A stretch of DNA of 28,981 nucleotides from Burkholderiales bacterium. Lineage in GTDB: Bacteria; Pseudomonadota; Gammaproteobacteria; Burkholderiales; SG8-39. Positions 2 to 27,671 of the stretch are shown in pieces. The DNA lies in assembly GCA_036376975.1 (NCBI GenBank), contig DASUZH010000389.1, positions 1 to 28,981 of the forward strand. Reading direction: 5' to 3'. The notes below the pieces were generated by a model. It saw only the letters and a list, made by a program, of their open reading frames with translations, made no database searches and had not been told where the DNA came from. The position numbers and the translations under genes were made by a program. Numbering within the stretch: position 1 is the first letter of the stretch; each line of letters opens with the position of its first letter.

Positions 2-1009
2 TGGATGATGTGGAACTGGCTGATGAGCGCGCTGGCCAGCGAGGCGGCGCTGCTGCTCTACGACGGCTCGCCGTTCGTCGGCCGCGGCAAGGTGCTGTTC
101 GACTTCGCCCAGGCCGAGGGCATGACGCATTTCGGCACCTCGGCCAAGTTCATCGACGCCATCGCCAAGACCGGCGTCAAGCCGCGCGAGACGCACGACC
201 TCGGCGCGCTGCGCGCGGTGCTGTCGACCGGCTCGCCCCTCGCGCCGGAGGGGTTCGACTACGTCTACGAGAACGTCAAGGCGGACGTCTGCCTGTCCTC
301 GATCTCGGGCGGCACCGACATCGTTTCCTGCTTCGTGCTCGGCAACCCTGTCGGGCCGGTCTGGCGCGGCGAGATCCAGGCGAAAGGCCTCGGTCTGGCG
401 GTCGATGTTTTTGACGAGACAGGCTCTGCAACAAAGGGCAAAGGCGAACTGGTCTGCACCAAACCCTTCCCGGCCATGCCGCTCGGCTTCTGGAACGACG
501 CCGACGGCGCGAGGTACCACGCCGCCTATTTCGAGAAGTATCCGGGGGTGTGGCGCCATGGCGACTGGTGCGAGATCACCGAGCATGGCGGCATGGTCAT
601 CTACGGCCGCTCCGACGCGGTGCTCAACCCCGGCGGGGTGCGCATCGGCACCGCCGAGATCTACCGCCAGGTCGAGCAGCTCGACGAGGTGGTCGAGTCG
701 CTGGTGATCGGGCAGGATTGGGATTCTGACGTGAGGGTGGTGCTGTTCGTGAAGCTGCGCGAAGGCCAGTCGCTCGACGATGCGTTGGTGAACAAGATCA
801 AGAAAAAGGTGCGCGACAACACCACGCCGCGGCACGTGCCGGCCAAGATCCTGCAGGTCGCCGACATCCCGCGCACGAAGAGTGGCAAGATCGTCGAGCT
901 GGCGGTGCGCGACGTGGTGCACGGCCGCCAGCCGAAGAACCTCGAGGCGCTCGCCAACCCGGAAGCGCTGGAGCATTTCAGGAACCGCATGGAGCTGGCC
1001 GCCGCATGA
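2..1009 (+). CDS. Acetoacetate--CoA ligase (ANL adenylate-forming family), 5'-truncated by the window edge
   Basis: Frame open from base 2 (WMMWNWL..., an internal motif of this family, so the track's ATG at 5 is not the true start). Motifs [57 protein letters not shown]. Confidence 0.92.
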
Positions 1010-1650
1010 CTGGCATCCCCGCCGGGCCGTTCGCCGGGCTCGACGAGCACGCGCTGCGCGCGCTGTGCCCGGGCGGGACGGTGCGGGCGGTGGCGAAGAA
1101 CGTCATCGTGGTCAGCGCGGGCGACGCCACCGATTCGCTCTACGTCATCCTGTCGGGCCGGGTGAAGGCGTTCGTCAGCGACGAGCAGGGCAAGGAGGTG
1201 GTGGTCAACACCATCGGCGCGGGCGACTTCTTCGGCGAGCTGGTGCTCGACGGCGGCCCGCGCGCGGCCTCGATCATGACCCTCGAGGCCTGCCGCTTCT
1301 ACGTCATCTCGCAGGAGGAGGCCGAGCGCCTGCTCGCCGCCAACCCGGCCTTCGGCCGCGAGCTGATCCGCAAGCTGATCGGCAAGGTGCGCTCGCTCAC
1401 CGGCCAGGTGCGCGACCTCGCGCTGAAGGACGTCTACGGCCGGCTGGCCAAGTTCGTCGAGGAGAACGCGGTTGAGCAGGACGGGCGACGGGTGATCCCC
1501 GAGCGCCTGACCCAGGCCGAGATCGCCGCCCGCATCGGCGGCTCGCGCGAGATGGTGAGCCGCATCCTCGGCGACCTGGCCGACGGCGGCTACATCGCGG
1601 TGGAAGGCAAGCGCATTGCCCTGCTGAAGAAGCTGCCGGCGCACTGGTAG
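1006..1650 (+). CDS. Crp/Fnr-family transcriptional regulator (cNMP-binding domain + winged HTH)
   Basis: ATGA overlap with upstream stop. cNMP pocket GDFFGE...PRAAS, hinge [35 protein letters not shown] (compare CRP SRETVGRIL). Confidence 0.93.
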
Positions 1651-1993: not shown

Positions 1994-4900
1994 ATGGGGT
2001 CGGAGGTCACCAGCAAGCACCTGCAGGGCGTCACCGACCTGACGCTGGTCGCGGACATCAAGCCCGGCCTGGCGCCCTCGCTCGACGCCTGCACCTACGA
2101 AACCCGCCTCGCGCTGGTGATGCGCACGTTCACCGGGCTGCGCTCGTCTTCCCGCGAGTACGCGGTGATCCGCCCGTTCTCCGACACGGTGGAGCGGATC
2201 CAGGAAATCCACTCCTTCCGCCTCGCCGTCATCCCGCCGAAGGAGGGCGAGGGCGTGACGCGCAGGCTGCTCCTGTCGGTGGGCTTCGACGGCGGCTGGG
2301 AGCAGTACATCCGCCGCGTCTGGCGCGACCTCGGCCCGCTGCTCGACGTGATGTTCTGCAACACCACCGACTACAAGAGCGCCTGGGACCACAGCTTCCA
2401 GGACTACGTGGCGTGGATCCGCTCCAAGCAGCTCGACACCGGCTTTTTCTACAGCGCGACCGGGCTCTCGGTGACCGACCTGCAGTACCTCCGGCAGGTG
2501 GAAAAGCTCCATCGGGAGGGCCATGCCAACCTCGAGCTGGCGGCGGCCCAGCTCACCGCGGCCGATCCGGAGGCCGTAGCGAAGGACGCAGCCGCGCTGA
2601 ACCCGGCCGAGGCCATGCGACTCGGCCTCACCGCGCTGGGCACGCTCTACCGGCTCACCGACTTCTACCCGCCCGACCATGCGGACGGCGGCTATCTCTG
2701 GCGCGCGACGCGCCAGCTGATGAAGGAGCTCGATACGCCCGGCCTGCCCGCCCCGGTGCGTGCGGCCTATGCAACGCAGATCGACTGGTTCGAGAAGCCG
2801 CCGCCCGCGCCGGCGCCCGCCCCGCAGCCCTGGCCGAAGTTCGACCCCGCCAACGTGCAGGCCGGCATCCTCAAGGGCTACGACCAGGGCAGCGGCACCG
2901 ACCCGCGCAAGAAGGTCAACCACGGCTGCCTGCTCCTGCTGCAGATCGCCGACCCGGACGTGGCGAACGCGCACGCCTTCCTGCGCGCGCTGCAGCCGAT
3001 GATCAGCCGCCACGACGCGCCGCCGCAGGGCGAGGTCTACACCAACGTCGCGTTCACTTGCCAGGGGCTCGCCAGGCTCGGCGTGCCGGCCGCCTCGCTC
3101 GCCGCCTTTCCGAAGGAGTTCCAGGAGGGCATGGCGGATCGCGCCGACCTGCTGGGCGACTTCCGCTGCAACCATCCGCGCAACTGGGCGCTGCCGAAGC
3201 GCAACTGGCCGGCGCCGGGCGGGCGCGTCCAGCTGTCGACCGTCGACATCGTCGTGCAGCTTCGCCTGCGCGGGCGCGACCTGCAGCCCGGCGACCACGA
3301 GGTCGCCGGCAACCCGGGACACCCCCTGTACGCCGCGGTCGAGGGGCTGGACAAGCTGGCCGGCCGGCACGGCGTGCGGCTGCTGTCGGTGGAGACCATG
3401 GTGAGCTACCGCGACGCCAACCTCGATCCGGTCGGGCACCTCGATTTCGTCGACGGCATCAGCCAGCCGATGGTGCCGGGCATCGACCCGGCGCTGGACG
3501 CGGACGACGCGAAGCGCGTCAACTGGCGCGACCGCGTCGGGCTGGGCGAGATGCTGTGCGGCCACCCGAACGACGGCGGGGACGCGCCGTTGAGCGGGCC
3601 CGCCGCCGAGTACCTGAGCGACGGCACTTTCCTCGTGGTGCGCAAGCTGCGCATCGATACCGACGCGCTGGACGAGTTCTACGAAGAGCAGGAGACGAAG
3701 CACGGCATCCCGCGCCGCGTGCTGGAAGGCAAGATGATGGGCCGTGCCGGCGACGGCACGGCGCTCGCCGCGCCCACCAAGGGCAACGACTTCAACTACA
3801 GCAGCGCGGCCAACCAGAGCGGCGCGCTGTGCCCGTTCCAGGCCCACGCGCGGCGCGCCAACCCGCGCACCGACCCGGCCGGGGATCCTTCCAAGCGGGT
3901 GCCGCGGATCATGCGCCGCGGCATGTCCTACGGGCCCAAAGGGGCCGGCGCCGCCGACTGCGGCCTGATGTTCCTGGCGTACAACGCGAGCATCGCCGAG
4001 CAGTTCGAGGTGATCCAGCGCTGGATCGCCGGCGGCAACAGCACCAACGTATTCGCCGGCGACGCCGACCCGTTCCTCGGCGTGCCGCAGCTCGGCGATC
4101 CGCGCACCTTCCGCTTCCACGACGGCGCCGCGGTGACGCGGGTCGACCTCGACGCCGGCAGCCCGCATCCCGGCGCGCGGCCGTTCTCGCAGGTCGAGTG
4201 GGGCGCCTACCTGTTCGTGCCTTCGCTCGCTGCGCTCGGCAAGCTGGCCGCGGCGGCGCCGCAGACCCCGTCGGACGCGGTGGCGAGGGGCGAGCAGATC
4301 ATCAAGACGCTGCTCTACCTCGAGTCGCTGCCGGGCGCCGACATCCCGCGCATCCGCGACGCGTGGAAGGCCTACCTGGAGGACCTCGGCTCGAAGGAAA
4401 AGGGCTACAACAGCGCGATCTGGGCCGCCCTGCGCGAGAAGTTCGGCGGCGCGCTGTGGACGCCGTACGGCGTGCTGGTGGCGAACCCCAAGATGGTCGA
4501 CTTCGTGTTCACCAACAAGGACCTCTATTCGGTCGAGGGGCACGCCGGCGGCGCCGAGCCGGTCGAGGGCTACCTGCACCGCTCGCGCGACACCATCGGC
4601 GAGATCTACCTCGGGCTGGACGACACGGGGCCGGGCTCCGAATACCAGCGCAGGTCGAAGGAGACCAACGAGGAGCTGATGCGGCTCACCGGGGAGGAAG
4701 CGTTCGTCCTCGCCCGCGACGCCACCGTGAAGCACCTCAAAGGACTGCTCGCGCTGAACGGCGGCAAGGAAGTCACGCTCGACCTGCGCACGATGCTGTC
4801 GGATCCGGTGCTGGCCGCGGTGTGCCGCGCCTGGTTCGACCTGCCGGACGGCAAGTACGTGGTGGACGGCGGCTGGAACTGGCAGTCGGGTCACACGCCG

Positions 4901-5596
4901 TGCTGCCCCGGCGACTTCACTTCGCCTTCGCGCTACATCTTCCAGCCCAACCCGGCGAAGCAGGTGGGCGACTACGCGAAGGCCCAGGGACGGGCGCTGC
5001 ACGAGGCGGTCCGGCAGTTCGCCGGCGCGATGAAGGGCAAGGTGAGCGGCAAGCTCTCCAAGGCGCTGTTCCGCATCATCCCGGACGACGACGACCGGCT
5101 GGCGAGCACCTTGATCGGCGTGATGATGGGCTTCCTGCCGACCGTAGACGGAAACTTCCGCAGCACGCTGCTGCAATGGCTGGCGGACGGCACCCTCTGG
5201 CGCCTGCAGGCGGACCTGCGCGCGGCGCCCGGCCCGATCGACTTCGCCCGCGCGCAGTCGGTGCTGCTCGGCGCGCTCAAGGCGGGCATGCAGAAGCGCC
5301 CGGTGCCCGACATCGTCTGGCGCACGGCGAAGGTGAAGCACGACCTCGGGCCGGTCGCGGTGCATCCGGGCGACAAGCTGGCGATCGGCATCGTCTCGTC
5401 GACGCAGGACAAGCTTGCCGCCGGCAAGCTCGACGTCTACCCCGTGTTCGGCGGCAAGCGTGGGCCTGACGGCCCGACGCACGCCTGCCCGGCGTACGAG
5501 GCGGGCATGGGCGTGCTGCTCGGGATGGTCAGCGGCCTGCTGGAGGCGGGAACGCTCCGCCCGACGCCGGTAACGCTGACGGTCCTATTGTCTTAA
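1994..5596 (+). CDS. 1200-aa fusion: N-terminal domain of unknown function + Pro-rich linker + DyP-type heme peroxidase + C-terminal cytochrome P450-like domain
   Basis: DyP motifs NVQAGIL (aa 287), FVDGISQP (Asp487), CPFQAHARRANPR (His618), RIMRRGMSYG (Arg641), GLMFLAY, QFEVIQRW, GAYLFVPS (aa 737). P450-like RPVPDIVWRTA and FGGKRGPDGPTHACPAY (Cys1165). No signal peptide seen. Confidence 0.85.
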   Translation: MGSEVTSKHLQGVTDLTLVADIKPGLAPSLDACTYETRLALVMRTFTGLRSSSREYAVIRPFSDTVERIQEIHSFRLAVIPPKEGEGVTRRLLLSVGFDGGWEQYIRRVWRDLGPLLDVMFCNTTDYKSAWDHSFQDYVAWIRSKQLDTGFFYSATGLSVTDLQYLRQVEKLHREGHANLELAAAQLTAADPEAVAKDAAALNPAEAMRLGLTALGTLYRLTDFYPPDHADGGYLWRATRQLMKELDTPGLPAPVRAAYATQIDWFEKPPPAPAPAPQPWPKFDPANVQAGILKGYDQGSGTDPRKKVNHGCLLLLQIADPDVANAHAFLRALQPMISRHDAPPQGEVYTNVAFTCQGLARLGVPAASLAAFPKEFQEGMADRADLLGDFRCNHPRNWALPKRNWPAPGGRVQLSTVDIVVQLRLRGRDLQPGDHEVAGNPGHPLYAAVEGLDKLAGRHGVRLLSVETMVSYRDANLDPVGHLDFVDGISQPMVPGIDPALDADDAKRVNWRDRVGLGEMLCGHPNDGGDAPLSGPAAEYLSDGTFLVVRKLRIDTDALDEFYEEQETKHGIPRRVLEGKMMGRAGDGTALAAPTKGNDFNYSSAANQSGALCPFQAHARRANPRTDPAGDPSKRVPRIMRRGMSYGPKGAGAADCGLMFLAYNASIAEQFEVIQRWIAGGNSTNVFAGDADPFLGVPQLGDPRTFRFHDGAAVTRVDLDAGSPHPGARPFSQVEWGAYLFVPSLAALGKLAAAAPQTPSDAVARGEQIIKTLLYLESLPGADIPRIRDAWKAYLEDLGSKEKGYNSAIWAALREKFGGALWTPYGVLVANPKMVDFVFTNKDLYSVEGHAGGAEPVEGYLHRSRDTIGEIYLGLDDTGPGSEYQRRSKETNEELMRLTGEEAFVLARDATVKHLKGLLALNGGKEVTLDLRTMLSDPVLAAVCRAWFDLPDGKYVVDGGWNWQSGHTPCCPGDFTSPSRYIFQPNPAKQVGDYAKAQGRALHEAVRQFAGAMKGKVSGKLSKALFRIIPDDDDRLASTLIGVMMGFLPTVDGNFRSTLLQWLADGTLWRLQADLRAAPGPIDFARAQSVLLGALKAGMQKRPVPDIVWRTAKVKHDLGPVAVHPGDKLAIGIVSSTQDKLAAGKLDVYPVFGGKRGPDGPTHACPAYEAGMGVLLGMVSGLLEAGTLRPTPVTLTVLLS

Positions 5597-8500
5597 GCGC
5601 TCCGCCTGCGCCAAGTGCCACGCCATGTCCATCGCTTCAAACCCGGCCATCGCCCGCTCGAGTAGGGGAAGCGCCGCCGCACGGTTGCCGCGCGCGAGCT
5701 CGATCTCGGCGGCGCACAGCTCGGTCGCCGCGGTTTCGTGGCGCGCGCCCCTGTCGCGCGCCGCCTGCATCGCCAGCGCCAGGTAGCGTTCGGGCGGCCG
5801 GCGGGCGTGCCCGCCCGCGGCGGCGCGGGCGAGCGCGCGGCAGGCCATGGCCTCGCCCAGGCGGTCGTCCCGCCTCGCGCGCTTCAGGGCGCGCGAGGCA
5901 TGGGCGCGCGCCTCGCCGAAGCGGCCGGCGGCGACCATGCCCTCCGCCAGCCAGCCGTAATTCAACGAGATGAACAGGCGCTTGTCACGCGCCTCCAGCC
6001 ATTGGGTCGCGGCGTCGATCGTGCCCAGCGCCTGCGGGTCGCCGCGCAGGATCCAGTTGGCGTAGGCGCCGAGCGCGCGGCTCATGCCATATACATAGAG
6101 GCTCTTGACCCGCTCGGCGATGTGCTCGGCCTCGGCGGCGGACTGGCGCGCGTCCTCCCAGCGGCCCTGCCAGAGGCAGACCGCGCTGCGCCAGCACAGC
6201 ACCGAGCCCTCGACCACCTTGTTGCCGCCGCGCAGCGCGTCGAGCGCCTCGTCGAAGCAGGCGTGCGCCTCGGCGAAGCTGCCGCGGTCGCCGAGCACCG
6301 ATGCCTTGCAGGCGAGCGAGTAGGCCGAGCCGATCGCCGGCCCGGTGCGGTGCGCGCGCCGCACGGCGATCGCGGCGTCGAGCTGCGCCAGCGCCGGCGC
6401 GTAGTCGCCGGCCGCGGCGCGCGCCTGGCCGAGCGTGGCGGTGATCTGCACGCCGAGCGCCTCGTCGCCGGCGCGCCGCGCGGCGGCGAGCGCGCGCTCG
6501 CAGTGACCGATCGCGAGGCGGGACTCGCCCAGCCCGTAGTTGAGGTAGCCGAGCCAGTACTCGGCCCCGGCCACGCCGGCCGCATCGTCATGCCCGGCGG
6601 CGAACTCGGCGGCGCGCTGCAGCACGTCGAGCTGGTCCTTGGCCGGGTCGAACACGCAGGCCATGCCGAAGCGCTGCACGATCTGGCTGCGCCGGCGCCG
6701 GTTCGCTTCGGTCGGCTCGAGCAGGTCGAGCGCGGCGAGCGCCGCGCGGTATTGCGCCTGCGCGCGGTCGAGCGCGGCGGCGGCCATCGCCTTGTCGCCC
6801 GCCAGCTCGGCGTAGCGCGCCGCCTCGGCGTGCCGCCCGCCGGCGCCGTAGTGGTAGGCGAGCGCCTCGAACGGCTCGGCTTCGCTGCCGGAGCCGTGGC
6901 GCAGCAGCGATTCGGCGATGCGCAGGTGCATCGCGCGCCGCTGGTGCAGGCCGACCGAGTCGTAGATCACGTCGCGCGTGATGCCGTGCTTGAAGCGCAG
7001 CCAGCCGGGCGCCTCGCCGGGGAACAGGAAATCCTGCTCGGCGAGGCCCTGCACCAGCGGGTCGTGCTCGCCGCGCCCGGTCATGCCTTCGAGCAGCCAG
7101 GCCGGCACCACGTTGCCGATCACCGCGGCGGCGCGCAGCAGCTCGGCCTGCGCGGCGGGCAGCCGCGCGACGCGCGACTCGATCAGGCCGTTCAGCCACG
7201 CCGCGCCGCCGCGCGCGCGGCCGAAGCGGTGCTCGGCGCTGTCGTGCGCCGCCGAATGGCACAGCTCCTCGATGAACAGCGGGTTGCCGCCCGAGTAGCG
7301 GTGGATCTCGGCGACGACGAACGGGTCCCTGCTCGGCAGCAGCGCGCTCACCGTCTCCGCCGCCTCGCTTTCGCTGAACGGCGCGAGGTCGAGCACGCGC
7401 GCGTCGCTCATCTCGGCGTCGCCGGCGGCGATGCCGCGGGTGGCGAGCAGCACCATCAGGCGGCAGCGCTCCAGCCGGCGGATCGCGCCCAGCACCTGGC
7501 GCGTGGCGTCGTCCGCCCATTGCCAGTCGTCGATGAACAGCACGATGGCGCGGCTGGCGGCGAGGGCGGCGAACAGGTCGCGCAGCGCGGCGGCGGTGTT
7601 GTCGGGCGTGGCGCGCGCGCCGTCCGGCTCGCCGGAGAGCAGCGACAGGGCGCGCAGCAGCTCGCCGCGGTGGCGCTCGAGCGCCGGGTCGATGCCGCGC
7701 AGCGTGCGGCCGAGCGCCTCGGCGGCGAGAACCGCCGACATGCCGCGCTCCAGGCGGCAGAGCGAGCGCAGCATCTGCAGGAAGGGCTGCAGCGGCTCGG
7801 CGTTGAGGTAGCTCTCGCAATGGCCGCGGTGCACCTGGAACTTGCCCGCGGCGCGGCCGAGGAACTCGTCGGCGAGCCGCGTCTTGCCGAGGCCGGGGCC
7901 GGCGGAAAGCGCGACGTAGGCCGGTTCGCCGGCGGCCGCGGCCTGCAGCGTCTCCTCGAGCGCGCGCATCTCGGCCTTGCGGTCGACCAGCGGCACCAGG
8001 CCGCGCCGCGCGCGCGCCTCGAAGCGGGTGGTGGCCGGCGCACGGCCGAGGATGCGGTACACCCCGATCGGCTCGGCGGCGCCCTTCACCTCCAGGTGCT
8101 GCCGTCCACCGGTCTGGAAGAAGTGGCTTTCGGCGCCGAGCGTCGCCTCGCTCACCAGGATCTCGTCCTTCTCGGCGGCGTCGGACAGCCGCGCGGCGAT
8201 GTTCGGCGCGTTGCCGAGCAGCTCGAAGCGGCCGCGCACCAGGTCGCCTTCGTCGAGCAGCACCAGGCCGGCGTGGATCCCGCTGTGCAGGCCGAGCCGC
8301 GCCCCCGGCAGCGGGCGCTCGAAGCGGAACTCGCGCACCACGGCGTGCAGCTGGAGCGCGGTCTCGGTCGCCCGGCGGCCGTCATTCTCGCCCGCGTCGG
8401 GGTAGCCGAAGATGGCGAGCAGGCCGTCGCCCTGGATCCGCACGATGGTCCCGCCGTGCTTCGGGATCACTTCCTGATAGGCGCGCCGCAGCCGGCCGAG

Positions 8501-8605
8501 CAGGTCGGCGTAGTCTTCGGCCTCCATGGCGTCGGCCAGACGCGTCGAATCCGACAGATCGGAGAAGAGGATCGTGAGGTGGCGCCGGCGCATCCTGCGG
8601 CACAT
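5585..8605 (-). CDS. Class III adenylate/guanylate cyclase - STAND/AAA ATPase - TPR-like repeat protein
   Basis: Cyclase motifs TILFSDLSDST (D16), RIQGDG (D60), GIHAG, LGNAPNIAARL (N135/R139). Walker A AGPGLGKT, Walker B LFIDDWQWAD, GGNPLFIEEL, FKHGITRDVIY, then Ala-rich TPR-like helices. Start is 8605 or 8593. Confidence 0.9.
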   Translation of the reverse strand: MCRRMRRRHLTILFSDLSDSTRLADAMEAEDYADLLGRLRRAYQEVIPKHGGTIVRIQGDGLLAIFGYPDAGENDGRRATETALQLHAVVREFRFERPLPGARLGLHSGIHAGLVLLDEGDLVRGRFELLGNAPNIAARLSDAAEKDEILVSEATLGAESHFFQTGGRQHLEVKGAAEPIGVYRILGRAPATTRFEARARRGLVPLVDRKAEMRALEETLQAAAAGEPAYVALSAGPGLGKTRLADEFLGRAAGKFQVHRGHCESYLNAEPLQPFLQMLRSLCRLERGMSAVLAAEALGRTLRGIDPALERHRGELLRALSLLSGEPDGARATPDNTAAALRDLFAALAASRAIVLFIDDWQWADDATRQVLGAIRRLERCRLMVLLATRGIAAGDAEMSDARVLDLAPFSESEAAETVSALLPSRDPFVVAEIHRYSGGNPLFIEELCHSAAHDSAEHRFGRARGGAAWLNGLIESRVARLPAAQAELLRAAAVIGNVVPAWLLEGMTGRGEHDPLVQGLAEQDFLFPGEAPGWLRFKHGITRDVIYDSVGLHQRRAMHLRIAESLLRHGSGSEAEPFEALAYHYGAGGRHAEAARYAELAGDKAMAAAALDRAQAQYRAALAALDLLEPTEANRRRRSQIVQRFGMACVFDPAKDQLDVLQRAAEFAAGHDDAAGVAGAEYWLGYLNYGLGESRLAIGHCERALAAARRAGDEALGVQITATLGQARAAAGDYAPALAQLDAAIAVRRAHRTGPAIGSAYSLACKASVLGDRGSFAEAHACFDEALDALRGGNKVVEGSVLCWRSAVCLWQGRWEDARQSAAEAEHIAERVKSLYVYGMSRALGAYANWILRGDPQALGTIDAATQWLEARDKRLFISLNYGWLAEGMVAAGRFGEARAHASRALKRARRDDRLGEAMACRALARAAAGGHARRPPERYLALAMQAARDRGARHETAATELCAAEIELARGNRAAALPLLERAMAGFEAMDMAWHLAQAERLRQ

Positions 8606-25322: not shown

Positions 25323-26168
25323 ATGAAGCTTTCCAAGGAGCAGCTCGAACGCTTCGATCGCGATGGGTATCTCTTTTTTCCTTCTTTGTTCACCAAGGAG
25401 GAAATCCGGGTTCTGACCGACGAAGTCCCCGGCCTGTATTCCCAGCGCCGCGCGGAGAACGTGCGCGAGAAGACCGGCGACGTGGTGCGCACCAACTTCG
25501 CCGCGCACATGTACAGCTACCCCTTCGCCAAGCTGGCGCGTCACCCGCGCATGGTCGAGCCGATCAAGTCGCTGTTCGGCGAAGACGTCTACATGCACCA
25601 GTTCAAGATCAACGGCAAGCAGGCCTTCGACGGCGACGTCTGGCAGTGGCACCAGGACTACGGCACCTGGATGAACGACGACCAGATGCCGGCGGCGCGC
25701 GCCATGAACGTGGCGATCTTCCTCGACGAGGTGAACGAGTTCAACGGCCCGCTGATGTTCATCCCCGGCAGCCACAAGCAGGGCGTGCTCGACGCGTCCC
25801 ACGACCAGAGCACGACCAGTTATCCGCTCTGGGTTATTTCGAATGAAAACATAAAGAAAATGGTGGAGAAGGGCGGCATCGTCGCGCCCAAGGGGCCGCC
25901 CGGCTCGATGATCCTGTTCCACGGCTGCCTGGTGCACGCCTCGACCTCGAACCTGTCGCCTTGGAACCGCGTCAGCGTCTACCTCTCGCTTTGCGCCGTC
26001 TCCAACCACATCCGCCGCTTCAAGCGCCCGGGCTACATCGCGCACCGCGACTTCACCCCGATCCAGTGCCTGCCGGACGACTGCCTGCTGAAGCACTACG
26101 ACGTGCCGCTGCCGTGGAAAGACGGCACACCGGCCGAAGAGCTGCAGGGCGCGCTCCGGGCGGCGTAG
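25323..26168 (+). CDS. PhyH/EctD-like Fe(II)/2-oxoglutarate dioxygenase (ectoine/proline hydroxylase-like)
   Basis: RBS GAGGA. FDRDGY, YMHQFKIN, WQWHQDYGTW (HxD), NGPLMFIPGSH, LVHAS (distal His), NLSPWNR. Confidence 0.88.
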   Translation: MKLSKEQLERFDRDGYLFFPSLFTKEEIRVLTDEVPGLYSQRRAENVREKTGDVVRTNFAAHMYSYPFAKLARHPRMVEPIKSLFGEDVYMHQFKINGKQAFDGDVWQWHQDYGTWMNDDQMPAARAMNVAIFLDEVNEFNGPLMFIPGSHKQGVLDASHDQSTTSYPLWVISNENIKKMVEKGGIVAPKGPPGSMILFHGCLVHASTSNLSPWNRVSVYLSLCAVSNHIRRFKRPGYIAHRDFTPIQCLPDDCLLKHYDVPLPWKDGTPAEELQGALRAA

Positions 26169-26169
26169 C

Positions 26170-26295
26170 GTGACCGGCGACCCAGAGGACGATGTCGAGC
26201 AAGACGATCCGCCGGAAGATGACGAGGACGAGAAGATTGACGACGACGAAGGCGAAGAAGTCTTCCCGATAGACGACCCCGAGCGCGACGCATGA
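26170..26295 (+). CDS. Hyper-acidic 41-aa microprotein (MTGDPEDDVEQDDPPEDDEDEKIDDDEGEEVFPIDDPERDA), absent from the ORF track
   Basis: GTG 1 nt after the upstream TAG; its TGA overlaps the downstream ATG (ATGA 26292-26295). 23 of 41 residues are D/E. Confidence 0.6.
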   Translation: MTGDPEDDVEQDDPPEDDEDEKIDDDEGEEVFPIDDPERDA

Positions 26296-27671
26296 ACCTT
26301 TACTCCAAGCTCCAGCAGCGCAAAGACAATCCGCTGCGCATCGGCGTGATCGGTGCCGGCAAGTTCGGCGCGATGTACATCGCGCAGGTGCCGAAGACTC
26401 CCGGCGTGCACTTGGTCGGCATTGCTGATCTTTCGCCCGCTAACGCGAAGGAGAACCTGAGCCGTACCGGGTGGCCTCCGGACGCTTATGGAGCTGCCTC
26501 GCTGGATGAGGCGCTGAAGCAGAAGAGAACCCATGTGTCGGATGACTGGGAGAAGCTGGTAGCGCATCCGGCGATCGACATCATCATCGAGTCGACCGGC
26601 AATCCGCCGGCGGCGGTGGAGCACGCGCTGGCGGCGTTCAAGAACCGAAAGCACGTGGTGATGGTGACGGTGGAGGCCGACGCGTTTTGCGGGCCGGTGC
26701 TGGCGCAGAAGGCGAAAGAGGCGGGTGTCATCTACAGCCTGGCGTACGGCGACCAGCCGGCGCTGATCTGCGACCTGGTCGACTGGGCGAGGGCCGCGGG
26801 CTTTCCGGTGGTCGCGGCGGGCCGCGGGCACAAGTGGCAGGCGCACTACGCGCAGTCGACGCCGGAGACGGTCTGGGGCTACTACGGCCTCACGCCGGAG
26901 CAGGCGAAGGTCGGCGGCCTCAACCCGAAGATGTTCAATTCGTTCCTCGACGGCTCGAAGCCGGCGATCGAGACCAGCGCGGTGTGCAACGCCACCGGCC
27001 TCACGCCGGCGCCGGAAGGGTTGCTCTATCCGGCCGGCGCGATCGACGAGATTCCCGCGCTGATGCGGCCGCGGAGCGAAGGCGGCGTGTTGCATCACAA
27101 GGGCCAGGTCGAAGTTGTTTCTTCTTTGACAGAAGAAGGAAAACCGATCTCCTATGACATCCGCTTCGGCGTGTTCGTCTCGTTCGAGGCGGAGACCGAC
27201 TACATCCAGCGCTGCTTCCAGGAATACGGCGTGAAGACGGATCCGTCGGGCCGCTACGCCTGCCTCTACAAGCGCTGGCACATGATCGGTCTAGAGGTCG
27301 GAATTTCCGTGGCTTCGGTGGGCCTGCGCAACGAGGCGACAGGAGTGGCGACGGGGTGGCGCGCCGACGCGGTCGCGACTGCGAAAAAGAACTTGAAGGC
27401 GGGAGAAATCCTCGATGGCGAGGGTGGCTACACAGTCGTCGGGCGGCTGATGCCGGCAGAGGATTCCTTGAAGCAGAACTGCCTGCCGCTGGGCCTCGCC
27501 CACGGCTGGAAGCTGCTCAAGCCCGTTTCCGCCGGGCAGCCTTTGCGCTGGAGCGACGTGGCTTTCGACGCGAACCAGACGGCCGTGCGGCTGCGGCGCG
27601 AGATGGAGTCCGCAGCTTCTCGAGGAAGCGGTACATCTCGGTATGATCCGCGCCCTGCGGCAGCTGCTTGA
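26292..27671 (+). CDS. NAD(P)-dependent oxidoreductase (homoserine-dehydrogenase-like N-terminus) with C-terminal SAF domain
   Basis: Rossmann IGVIGAGKFG, DIIIESTG, KHVVMVTVEAD, YGDQP, FLDGSKPAIE. SAF segment AKKNLKAGEILDGEGGY...LPLGLA. Confidence 0.82.
   Translation: MNLYSKLQQRKDNPLRIGVIGAGKFGAMYIAQVPKTPGVHLVGIADLSPANAKENLSRTGWPPDAYGAASLDEALKQKRTHVSDDWEKLVAHPAIDIIIESTGNPPAAVEHALAAFKNRKHVVMVTVEADAFCGPVLAQKAKEAGVIYSLAYGDQPALICDLVDWARAAGFPVVAAGRGHKWQAHYAQSTPETVWGYYGLTPEQAKVGGLNPKMFNSFLDGSKPAIETSAVCNATGLTPAPEGLLYPAGAIDEIPALMRPRSEGGVLHHKGQVEVVSSLTEEGKPISYDIRFGVFVSFEAETDYIQRCFQEYGVKTDPSGRYACLYKRWHMIGLEVGISVASVGLRNEATGVATGWRADAVATAKKNLKAGEILDGEGGYTVVGRLMPAEDSLKQNCLPLGLAHGWKLLKPVSAGQPLRWSDVAFDANQTAVRLRREMESAASRGSGTSRYDPRPAAAA

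Follow-up and report, generated by a model that had tools for sequence, protein, structure and literature searches.

Proteins in which a haem enzyme acting on peroxide or oxygen is followed, in the same chain, by a Cys-ligated cytochrome P450 are known from fungi, where they comprise the Ppo/psi-factor oxygenases, the linoleate diol synthases and the DOX-AOS and DOX-EAS enzymes; their P450 domains need no reductase and their substrates are lipids. Here we describe a protein with a comparable order of domains, P0001, encoded on the forward strand of a 28,981 nt stretch of DNA (hereafter, the window) from a Burkholderiales bacterium; the window is the entire contig C389 (accession no. DASUZH010000389.1), which belongs to a 3.07 Mb metagenome-assembled genome with a completeness of about 80%. 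The single chain of P0001 comprises an ABM-like alpha+beta/helical domain, a complete DyP peroxidase and a P450-fold domain of very divergent sequence. The first haem domain of the fungal fusions is animal-haem-peroxidase/cyclooxygenase-like, whereas that of P0001 is a DyP, a dimeric alpha+beta barrel; the P0001 family further differs from them in its bacterial hosts, the extra N-terminal domain, the lipases fused to some of its members and a partner gene for a cyclase-STAND protein.

Several other systems bear comparison. The allene oxide synthases and hydroperoxide lyases of family CYP74, as well as other P450s that rearrange hydroperoxides or endoperoxides (CYP8A1 and CYP5A1), neither activate O2 nor depend on a redox partner, and they show an altered I-helix chemistry; CYP74 enzymes carry an insertion in the haem loop, for which a counterpart in P0001 is not established (see below), and retain the ExxR motif, which the P0001 family has lost. 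The CYP152 enzymes (P450 BSbeta, SPalpha and OleT) are bacterial, driven by H2O2 and active on fatty acids without partner proteins, and their acid-alcohol pair is replaced, with a Pro in the I helix: the two positions are Arg-Pro, with the Arg as the binding residue for the carboxylate of the substrate. In P0001 the pair is instead Pro1049-Thr1050, preceded by Leu1048 and with no conserved Arg, and CYP152 enzymes lack a peroxidase fusion. The DyPs of classes C/D (8RE2/8RE3, 4G2C, and 5C2I) share the Asp, His and Arg motifs of the P0001 DyP domain and are its best sequence matches, but they are stand-alone proteins of about 450–490 residues, whereas P0001, with its 1200 residues, has the DyP between two other domains. 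Lastly, a fatty-acid oxygenase is coupled to a haem enzyme that converts the hydroperoxide in the catalase-related AOS-lipoxygenase fusions of corals and cyanobacteria, and the same principle of coupling is seen in the oleate 10S-dioxygenase/7,10-diol synthase pair of Pseudomonas aeruginosa, whose oxylipin products act as bacterial signals; these systems, however, use different folds (lipoxygenase, mini-catalase, and di-haem cytochrome c peroxidase) and have no P450, DyP or cyclase partner. By the features compared, the P0001 family belongs to none of CYP74, CYP152 and Ppo.

Domain organization and the DyP haem site

P0001 is specified by a single open reading frame (ORF) of 1200 codons without interruption, with a GGAG Shine-Dalgarno sequence around 10 nt 5′ of its ATG. 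Inspection by eye of the N-terminus of the product revealed no signal or twin-arginine sequence and, therefore, P0001 is probably cytoplasmic. The gene and the features of its product are as follows:

1994–5596 (+): whole gene, three-domain protein of 1200 amino acids plus stop codon (from the ORF list, the translation and full-length relatives)
1994–2848 (+): N-terminal domain, residues 1–285; ferredoxin-like (ABM-type) alpha+beta unit (about residues 1–155) and helical bundle
2849–4258 (+): DyP-type haem peroxidase domain, residues 286–755 (from PF20628, TIGR01413 and DyP matches in the PDB)
3452–3454 (+): codon of the distal Asp487, in the motif FVDGISQP
3845–3847 (+): codon of the proximal His618, in the motif CPFQAHARRANPR
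3914–3916 (+): codon of the distal Arg641, in the motif RIMRRGMSYG
4259–5593 (+): cryptic, very divergent cytochrome-P450-fold domain, residues 756–1200 (from profile, AlphaFold2 and fold evidence)
5129–5143 (+): I-helix GFLPT, residues 1046–1050, aligned to (A/G)Gx(D/E)T, with Pro1049 at the acid position
5279–5293 (+): K-helix KAGMQ, residues 1096–1100, at the site expected for ExxR
5321–5323 (+): codon of the invariant Arg1110, in the WRTA strand after the K helix, aligned to a conserved Arg of canonical P450s
5447–5491 (+): haem-thiolate loop FGGKRGPDGPTHACP, residues 1152–1166, with Cys1165 as predicted axial ligand and His1163 matching the His of HxC

An earlier note on this DNA, made by reading the sequence, had proposed a three-domain DyP-P450 fusion with a complete DyP catalytic set, and both proposals are borne out by the single ORF, the DyP profile matches and the fold of the C-terminal domain described in the next section. 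The DyP domain matched PF20628 (Dyp_perox_C) with 38.8 bits, above the cut-off of 20 (E = 1e-9), the match to DyP_N being weak, and the NCBIfam model TIGR01413 with an E-value of 3.9e-22 but with 79 bits, under the cut-off of 100.5 bits. Matches to DyPs of the PDB cover residues 348–751, with E-values from 1e-21 to 5e-13; the best solved relatives are 8re3/8re2 (E = 1e-21), which correspond to the DyP from Deinococcus radiodurans (PMC10820274), DyP2 from Amycolatopsis (4g2c) and AnaPX from Anabaena (5C2I). By these matches, the domain resembles the long class C/D (class V) type of DyP. Residues D487, H618 and R641 fall in the canonical motifs FxDGxSQP, AHxRRxNPR and RRGxxYG, respectively, and they are highly conserved in an alignment with 53 relatives: H618, R641 and also R642 are found in all of them, and D487 in 52, with the Asp motif reading DFVDG in P0001 and GFVDG in most relatives. 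Judging from the profile and PDB matches, the DyP domain is real and, by these residues, its Asp/His/Arg haem site is intact. The pair Cys613-Pro614 (positions 3830–3835 of the window), situated four to five residues before His618, is also invariant in the 53 relatives; we know of no equivalent of Cys613 among characterized DyPs.

The C-terminal and N-terminal domains

The C-terminal domain escapes the usual profiles. Residues 755–1200 gave no match to PF00067, even at an E-value of 10, and as a single sequence the domain matched nothing in NCBIfam or the PDB; likewise, Pfam annotation of 92 relatives retrieved PF20628 alone or together with lipase families. Conversely, a profile built from 52 family members and compared with all PDB sequences matched P450s almost exclusively (best match 7QAN, E = 3e-4), in alignments that span the K helix, the beta region and the Cys loop and that place the family H-A-C on the H-x-C of P450s. 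An AlphaFold2 model of the domain, obtained from the family alignment, reached a mean predicted local distance difference test (pLDDT) of 95.7 and a predicted template modelling score of 0.94. With this model, Foldseek produced 1603 PDB matches at E ≤ 0.001, the 50 listed being P450s without exception; an exhaustive VIA fold search, in which the 50 listed matches were again all P450s, gave CYP134A1 as the best (Z = 29.5 over 356 residues, root-mean-square deviation of 3.1 Å), with 96 representatives at Z ≥ 8 and just one more between Z 5 and 8. Additionally, comparison with hhalign to 20 canonical P450s, drawn from the genome of P0001 and its relatives, yielded a probability of 98.7% (E = 3.2e-15, 431 columns). 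The earlier note had named the lack of a P450 fold as a finding that would speak against its proposal; the AlphaFold2 model, Foldseek, VIA and hhalign concur that the C-terminal domain, as modelled, has a P450 fold, with an identity of 10–16% to any known P450. The ranking of the fold matches is flat. Its top positions are occupied by ordinary bacterial class I P450s, CYP152-type chains are found at ranks 28 (8d8p, Z = 26.9) and 48 (5yhj, Z = 25.3) of the PDB matches, two DOX-EAS entries rank 13th and 23rd among the best 30 matches from Swiss-Prot, and CYP74 is missing from both the best 50 PDB and the best 30 Swiss-Prot matches. Because of this flat ranking, no specific common ancestry with the fungal DOX-P450 fusions is shown.

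To count motifs we used 224 family sequences, mostly representatives of clusters at 50% identity, aligned to the hidden Markov model of the domain. The acid position of the I helix is occupied by Pro in 217 sequences and by Ala in six, and never by Asp or Glu, whereas the alcohol position holds Thr (183 sequences), Pro (34) or Ser (five); Gly1046 is invariant (223 of 223). The loss of the acid that the earlier note read from GFLPT in P0001 is thus a property of the family. The same is true for the absence of ExxR, in place of which the earlier note read AGMQ, since a conserved Glu/Arg pair is absent from columns 1096/1099 as well as from columns 1097/1100, the two plausible registers. On the other hand, the residues around the predicted haem ligand are strictly kept: His1163, Cys1165 and Pro1166 are each present in 221 of 221 sequences, and Arg1110 in 223 of 223. 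Cys1165, already named in the earlier note as the haem ligand, aligns on the P450 Cys and lies three residues before the predicted L helix in the AlphaFold2 model. In canonical P450s the His of HxC and an Arg from a beta strand bind the haem propionates, and from its position we infer that Arg1110 is the equivalent of this Arg. The invariance of C1165, H1163, P1166, R1110 and G1046 is the pattern expected of a working haem-thiolate site, and the domain is therefore predicted to retain, in Cys1165, His1163 and Arg1110, the residues that would hold a thiolate-ligated haem. The canonical P450s L004 (G000:C497) and L006 (G000:C239) from the same genome keep the motifs AGHETT, ExxR and FGxGxHxCxG, indicating that the extreme divergence is specific to the DyP-linked family and not to the organism.

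The haem loop does not have the canonical FxxGx(R/H)xCxG spacing. The one conserved Phe, F1152 (Phe in 220 sequences and Tyr in two), precedes the Cys by 13 residues, and by 11–29 in relatives, versus the canonical seven; position −7 from the Cys is variable in the family, although H-x-C-x-(G/A) is retained. Two alignments compete for this segment: if FGG corresponds to FxxG, there would be an insertion of six residues (4–22 in relatives), whereas there would be none if FGGxR corresponds to the FDxxR/PERF motif. The first is favored by the succession of F[GS] and HxCxG, which mimics the canonical signature, and by the spacer between FGG and HxC, whose length of six to 24 residues across the family is the kind of variation expected of a surface insertion. 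Against it, both HMMER and hhalign set FGG upstream of FxxG and near PERF/FDxxR, albeit with low posterior confidence; F1152 and R1156 are spaced as F-x-x-x-R, like the Phe and Arg of FDxxR in bacteria; and F1152 closes a one-turn helix in the AlphaFold2 model, as the PERF Phe usually does. Furthermore, 65 residues separate the ExxR equivalent from the Cys, versus 68 in the canonical P450 from contig C497 of the same genome, which indicates that there is no net insertion. A profile of the Cys loop alone was uninformative against the PDB, with a ribosomal protein as top match by chance and no CYP74. We thus consider it somewhat doubtful that the FGG-HxC segment is a haem-loop insertion, and the CYP74-like insertion of six residues described in the earlier note could not be established, although the haem loop of P0001 is non-canonical under either alignment.

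The N-terminal domain (residues 1–285) had no match in Pfam, NCBIfam or the PDB at the sequence level, and its profile yielded only chance-level matches against PDB sequences. Its AlphaFold2 model (pLDDT of 93.4) begins with a ferredoxin-like alpha+beta unit of four strands, after which comes a helical bundle. The fold matches are weak (Z of 5–7) and comprise ABM/SchA-like polyketide enzymes, rhamnose/fucose mutarotases and the tetracenomycin F2 cyclase, all from the dimeric alpha+beta-barrel superfamily; residues R38, R50, F98, D99 and Y105 are invariant. A possible kinship with the C-terminal domain was rejected, because hhalign showed no relation between the two. In the AlphaFold database, matches to residues 1–175 revealed the alpha+beta unit also as a stand-alone protein of about 150–230 amino acids, at the C-terminus of a 761 amino acid entry named "Catalase" and at the N-terminus of a 626 amino acid entry named "Peroxidase", so haem enzymes that handle peroxide may repeatedly have this unit as an accessory domain.

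Distribution, lipases and gene neighborhood

A word-indexed search retrieved 92 relatives, mostly of 1170–1290 amino acids, aligned over their full length with 30–66% identity, from Bradyrhizobium, Sphingomonas, Mitsuaria, Rubrivivax and many betaproteobacterial metagenome-assembled genomes; an exhaustive profile search expanded the family to 591 clusters (50% identity) at E ≤ 1e-30 and to 862 at E ≤ 1e-10. The family is nevertheless rare per genome, as it was found in two of 400 genomes sampled from the phylum, in two of 100 from the same family as the window and in none of four from its genus, indicating that this is an accessory gene with a patchy distribution. The short relatives P0088 and P0089, considered as natural DyP-only or P450-only forms, were discarded as truncated gene calls. 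In public databases the relatives are named only "Dyp-type peroxidase" or "hypothetical protein", and our literature searches found no publication on DyP-P450 fusions.

Among the 188 full-length relatives, that is, those with both the DyP and the P450 haem motifs, 53 end in a GDSL/SGNH lipase extension (E-values down to 2.8e-8, just at or below the Pfam cut-offs) and five start with a patatin phospholipase (E-values down to 2e-21), the lipase-fused proteins reaching about 1550–1630 amino acids. Lipases also occur as separate neighbors: a GDSL gene adjoins the enzyme gene in locus L001 and lies 4 kb upstream in L046, and a gene for a patatin-like protein of 650 amino acids adjoins it in L002, L041, and L044. 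Altogether, a lipase is either fused to the enzyme or encoded adjacent to it in eight of the 12 loci that were examined. The association with two unrelated lipase folds, at opposite ends of the chain and also as separate genes, constitutes a strong "Rosetta-stone" argument for a substrate derived from acyl lipids, and the substrate is most likely an acyl chain freed from lipid. In L043 (6975–7973) and L046 (6923–7906), from Mitsuaria and a metagenome contig, genes for proteins of 330 amino acids without Pfam matches are directly upstream of the enzyme gene; they had no tblastn match to the GDSL or patatin partners and may represent a further kind of partner.

Two genes next to that of P0001 recur in other loci:

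5585–8605 (−): class III nucleotidyl cyclase-AAA_16 (STAND)-TPR protein, 1006 amino acids (from Pfam); convergent with the enzyme gene and adjoining it
1006–1650 (+): Crp-family transcription regulator binding cyclic nucleotide monophosphates (cNMP) (from Pfam); upstream of the enzyme gene

The enzyme and cyclase genes share 12 nt at their 3′ ends (5585–5596). A cyclase-AAA_16-TPR ortholog (35–60% identity) adjoins the enzyme gene in ten of the 11 loci that could be assessed, which are the window and nine of ten others, including Sphingomonas, an alphaproteobacterium, and several betaproteobacteria; the exception is locus G336, without a cyclase gene within 8–10 kb. The convergent, abutting arrangement recurs in L001, L002, L003, L041, L043, L045, and L046, whereas both genes are co-directional in Bradyrhizobium. 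The crp gene adjoins the module in four loci (the window, L003, L045, and L046). Enzyme and sensor-cyclase are therefore a conserved two-gene core, to which lipases and Crp are frequent additions, and the nearly constant pairing with the cyclase-STAND-TPR gene, often along with crp, suggests that the pathway is wired to cNMP signaling.

As stated in the earlier note, the window contains no gene for a ferredoxin or reductase, since we found no Fer2 or Fer4_15 ferredoxin on the contig and no reductase among the ORFs scanned; likewise, neither of these redox partners is a conserved neighbor in the 12 loci. The remaining neighbors in the window include the housekeeping genes pyrG, kdsA, and eno and a gene for an AsmA/DUF748 protein. 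Among others, kdsA and the AsmA/DUF748 gene point to a Gram-negative host with high GC. A 51 amino acid ORF between crp and the enzyme gene (1749–1904) had no counterpart by tblastn in the 11 other loci bearing the module and, for this reason, it is not counted in it. The truncated AMP-binding (acyl-CoA-ligase-like) gene at 5–1009 has a 65% identical paralog at G000:C586:8663–9676 and is not conserved beside the module in other loci. Unrelated to the enzyme, region 25323–27671 contains genes for a PhyH-type dioxygenase and then a DRL/SAF oxidoreductase, beside a 3-hydroxyisobutyrate-dehydrogenase-like gene on the opposite strand.

Proposed function and rival explanations

We propose, with a probability of around 0.5, that P0001 is a two-haem enzyme independent of redox partners, whose haem domains would act in sequence on lipid-derived substrates and whose activity would be coupled to cNMP signaling. 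The acid of the I helix is never present, the ExxR/PERF triad is lost and there is no conserved redox partner nearby, and hence the P450 domain is most likely not a monooxygenase driven by NAD(P)H and ferredoxin; more likely, to go by its motifs, it works with a peroxide, which may be H2O2, an organic hydroperoxide or a fatty-acid hydroperoxide, like P450s of the isomerase/synthase or peroxygenase types. In this proposal, a fused or adjacent lipase would free an acyl chain from lipid, the DyP domain would make or reduce a peroxide or a radical, which would then be rearranged or oxygenated by the P450 domain. Alternatively, in the first step the DyP domain might act, as a peroxidase, on a hydroperoxide of other origin, or serve as a generator of protein radicals in the manner of cyclooxygenases. 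Regarding the coupling, the enzyme could be a regulated output, under the control of cNMP and Crp, or the source of a ligand detected by the TPR-STAND sensor. A more specific version is a bacterial oxylipin-type signaling circuit, assembled from parts with no such use elsewhere, in which a haem-derived protein radical of the DyP domain oxygenates the lipase-freed acyl chain to a hydroperoxide, the P450 domain turns this by rearrangement into a defined oxylipin, possibly processed further by the ABM-like N-terminal domain, and the neighboring STAND-cyclase senses the product through its TPR arm and produces cAMP or a different cNMP for Crp; in this full form, we consider it unlikely.

Several observations weigh against the proposal. 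To our knowledge, no DyP dioxygenates a fatty acid, which makes the first step the weakest. There is no lipase gene next to that of P0001 in the window, although the contig ends 2 kb upstream, and the rest of its incompletely recovered genome has no close homolog of the linked lipases. The fold rankings reveal no special structural kinship of the C-terminal domain to CYP74 or to other hydroperoxide-metabolizing P450s, and the alcohol Thr1050 is kept in approximately 80% of relatives, as would fit a P450 using O2. Moreover, bacterial P450s often have redox partners encoded elsewhere in the genome, and that of P0001 has eight Fer2 matches on other contigs, so their absence from a single contig is weak evidence. 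As to the analogy with the fungal haem-dioxygenase-P450 fusions, put forward in the earlier note, it stands for the architecture and gains from the lipases fused to, or neighboring, the relatives of P0001, but it does not extend to the first haem domain, which is a DyP, or to a specific common ancestry.

The evidence from the lipases, the DyP and the P450 applies also to a role in the repair or detoxification of lipid peroxides, instead of the making of a signal. Lipases would release oxidized acyl chains, the haem domains would convert their hydroperoxides to harmless products by reduction or rearrangement, and the cyclase and Crp would do no more than activate the system in response to oxidative or membrane stress. 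In favor of this, the two haem domains belong to kinds that handle peroxide, the gene has a Crp regulator beside it and an AhpC-type peroxiredoxin is found in the neighborhood of L045; nevertheless, it would be unusual for a detoxification enzyme to be tightly paired with a STAND sensor-cyclase across distant taxa, the rarity of the family is odd for a general stress function and no other oxidative-stress genes are conserved nearby, so we do not hold this role to be likely. The retention of Thr1050 in most members, the nearest structures being ordinary class I P450s, and a genome with Fer2 proteins and three canonical P450 genes would all suit a conventional monooxygenase dependent on O2 and NAD(P)H, with unlinked ferredoxin and reductase and a DyP that is independent or protective, for instance by removing peroxide from uncoupling. 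This we find quite unlikely, given that the acid is absent from 223 sequences and in 34 of them the Thr is also changed to Pro, that ExxR is missing and that a redox partner is conserved in none of the 12 loci.

The patchy distribution, together with the STAND AAA_16-TPR partner, whose cyclase domain has domain-level matches to Pycsar PycC models (E = 7.5e-16), could also suggest an anti-phage or abortive-infection module. Detection of an invader by the STAND-cyclase would lead to synthesis of a cyclic nucleotide, and the lipase and the two-haem enzyme would be a membrane-damaging or lipid-oxidizing effector; patatin lipases are known effectors of cyclic-nucleotide defense systems. However, no PADLOC model matches the enzyme or the linked lipases and there is no match to a defense system as a whole, those of the cyclase and Crp being generic domain matches. 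Additionally, the enzyme has no recognizable cNMP-binding domain, the nearby cNMP receptor is a Crp transcription factor, and the neighbors are housekeeping genes rather than a defense island, which makes a role in conflict improbable. Finally, the missing Pfam P450 match and the degenerate FxxGxR/HxCxG, ExxR and PERF signatures would be compatible with a P450-fold domain reduced to a haem-free structural or regulatory remnant, leaving the DyP as the only catalytic domain; this is very improbable in view of the five residues (C1165, H1163, P1166, R1110, and G1046) that are invariant in more than 220 sequences otherwise 30–50% identical.

If the proposal of a partner-independent two-haem enzyme is correct, the family would represent a large unannotated branch of the P450 superfamily, with at least 591 clusters at 50% identity, that was missed by standard profiles and that breaks three classical P450 signatures yet keeps the thiolate site. 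It would also be the first natural DyP-P450 two-haem enzyme and the bacterial equivalent of the dioxygenase-P450 oxylipin synthases of fungi, with a different fold in the first haem domain, and for enzymology it would offer a self-sufficient, probably peroxide-using P450 scaffold. By analogy, its design principle is shared with the fungal DOX-P450 enzymes, whereas nothing in those systems corresponds to the lipase fusions or the sensor-cyclase partner. The lipase fusions and the near-obligate sensor-cyclase lead to the testable hypothesis that bacteria may couple lipid oxidation to cyclic-nucleotide signaling, and the P0001 family is probably an unstudied lipid-oxidizing enzyme tied to such signaling.

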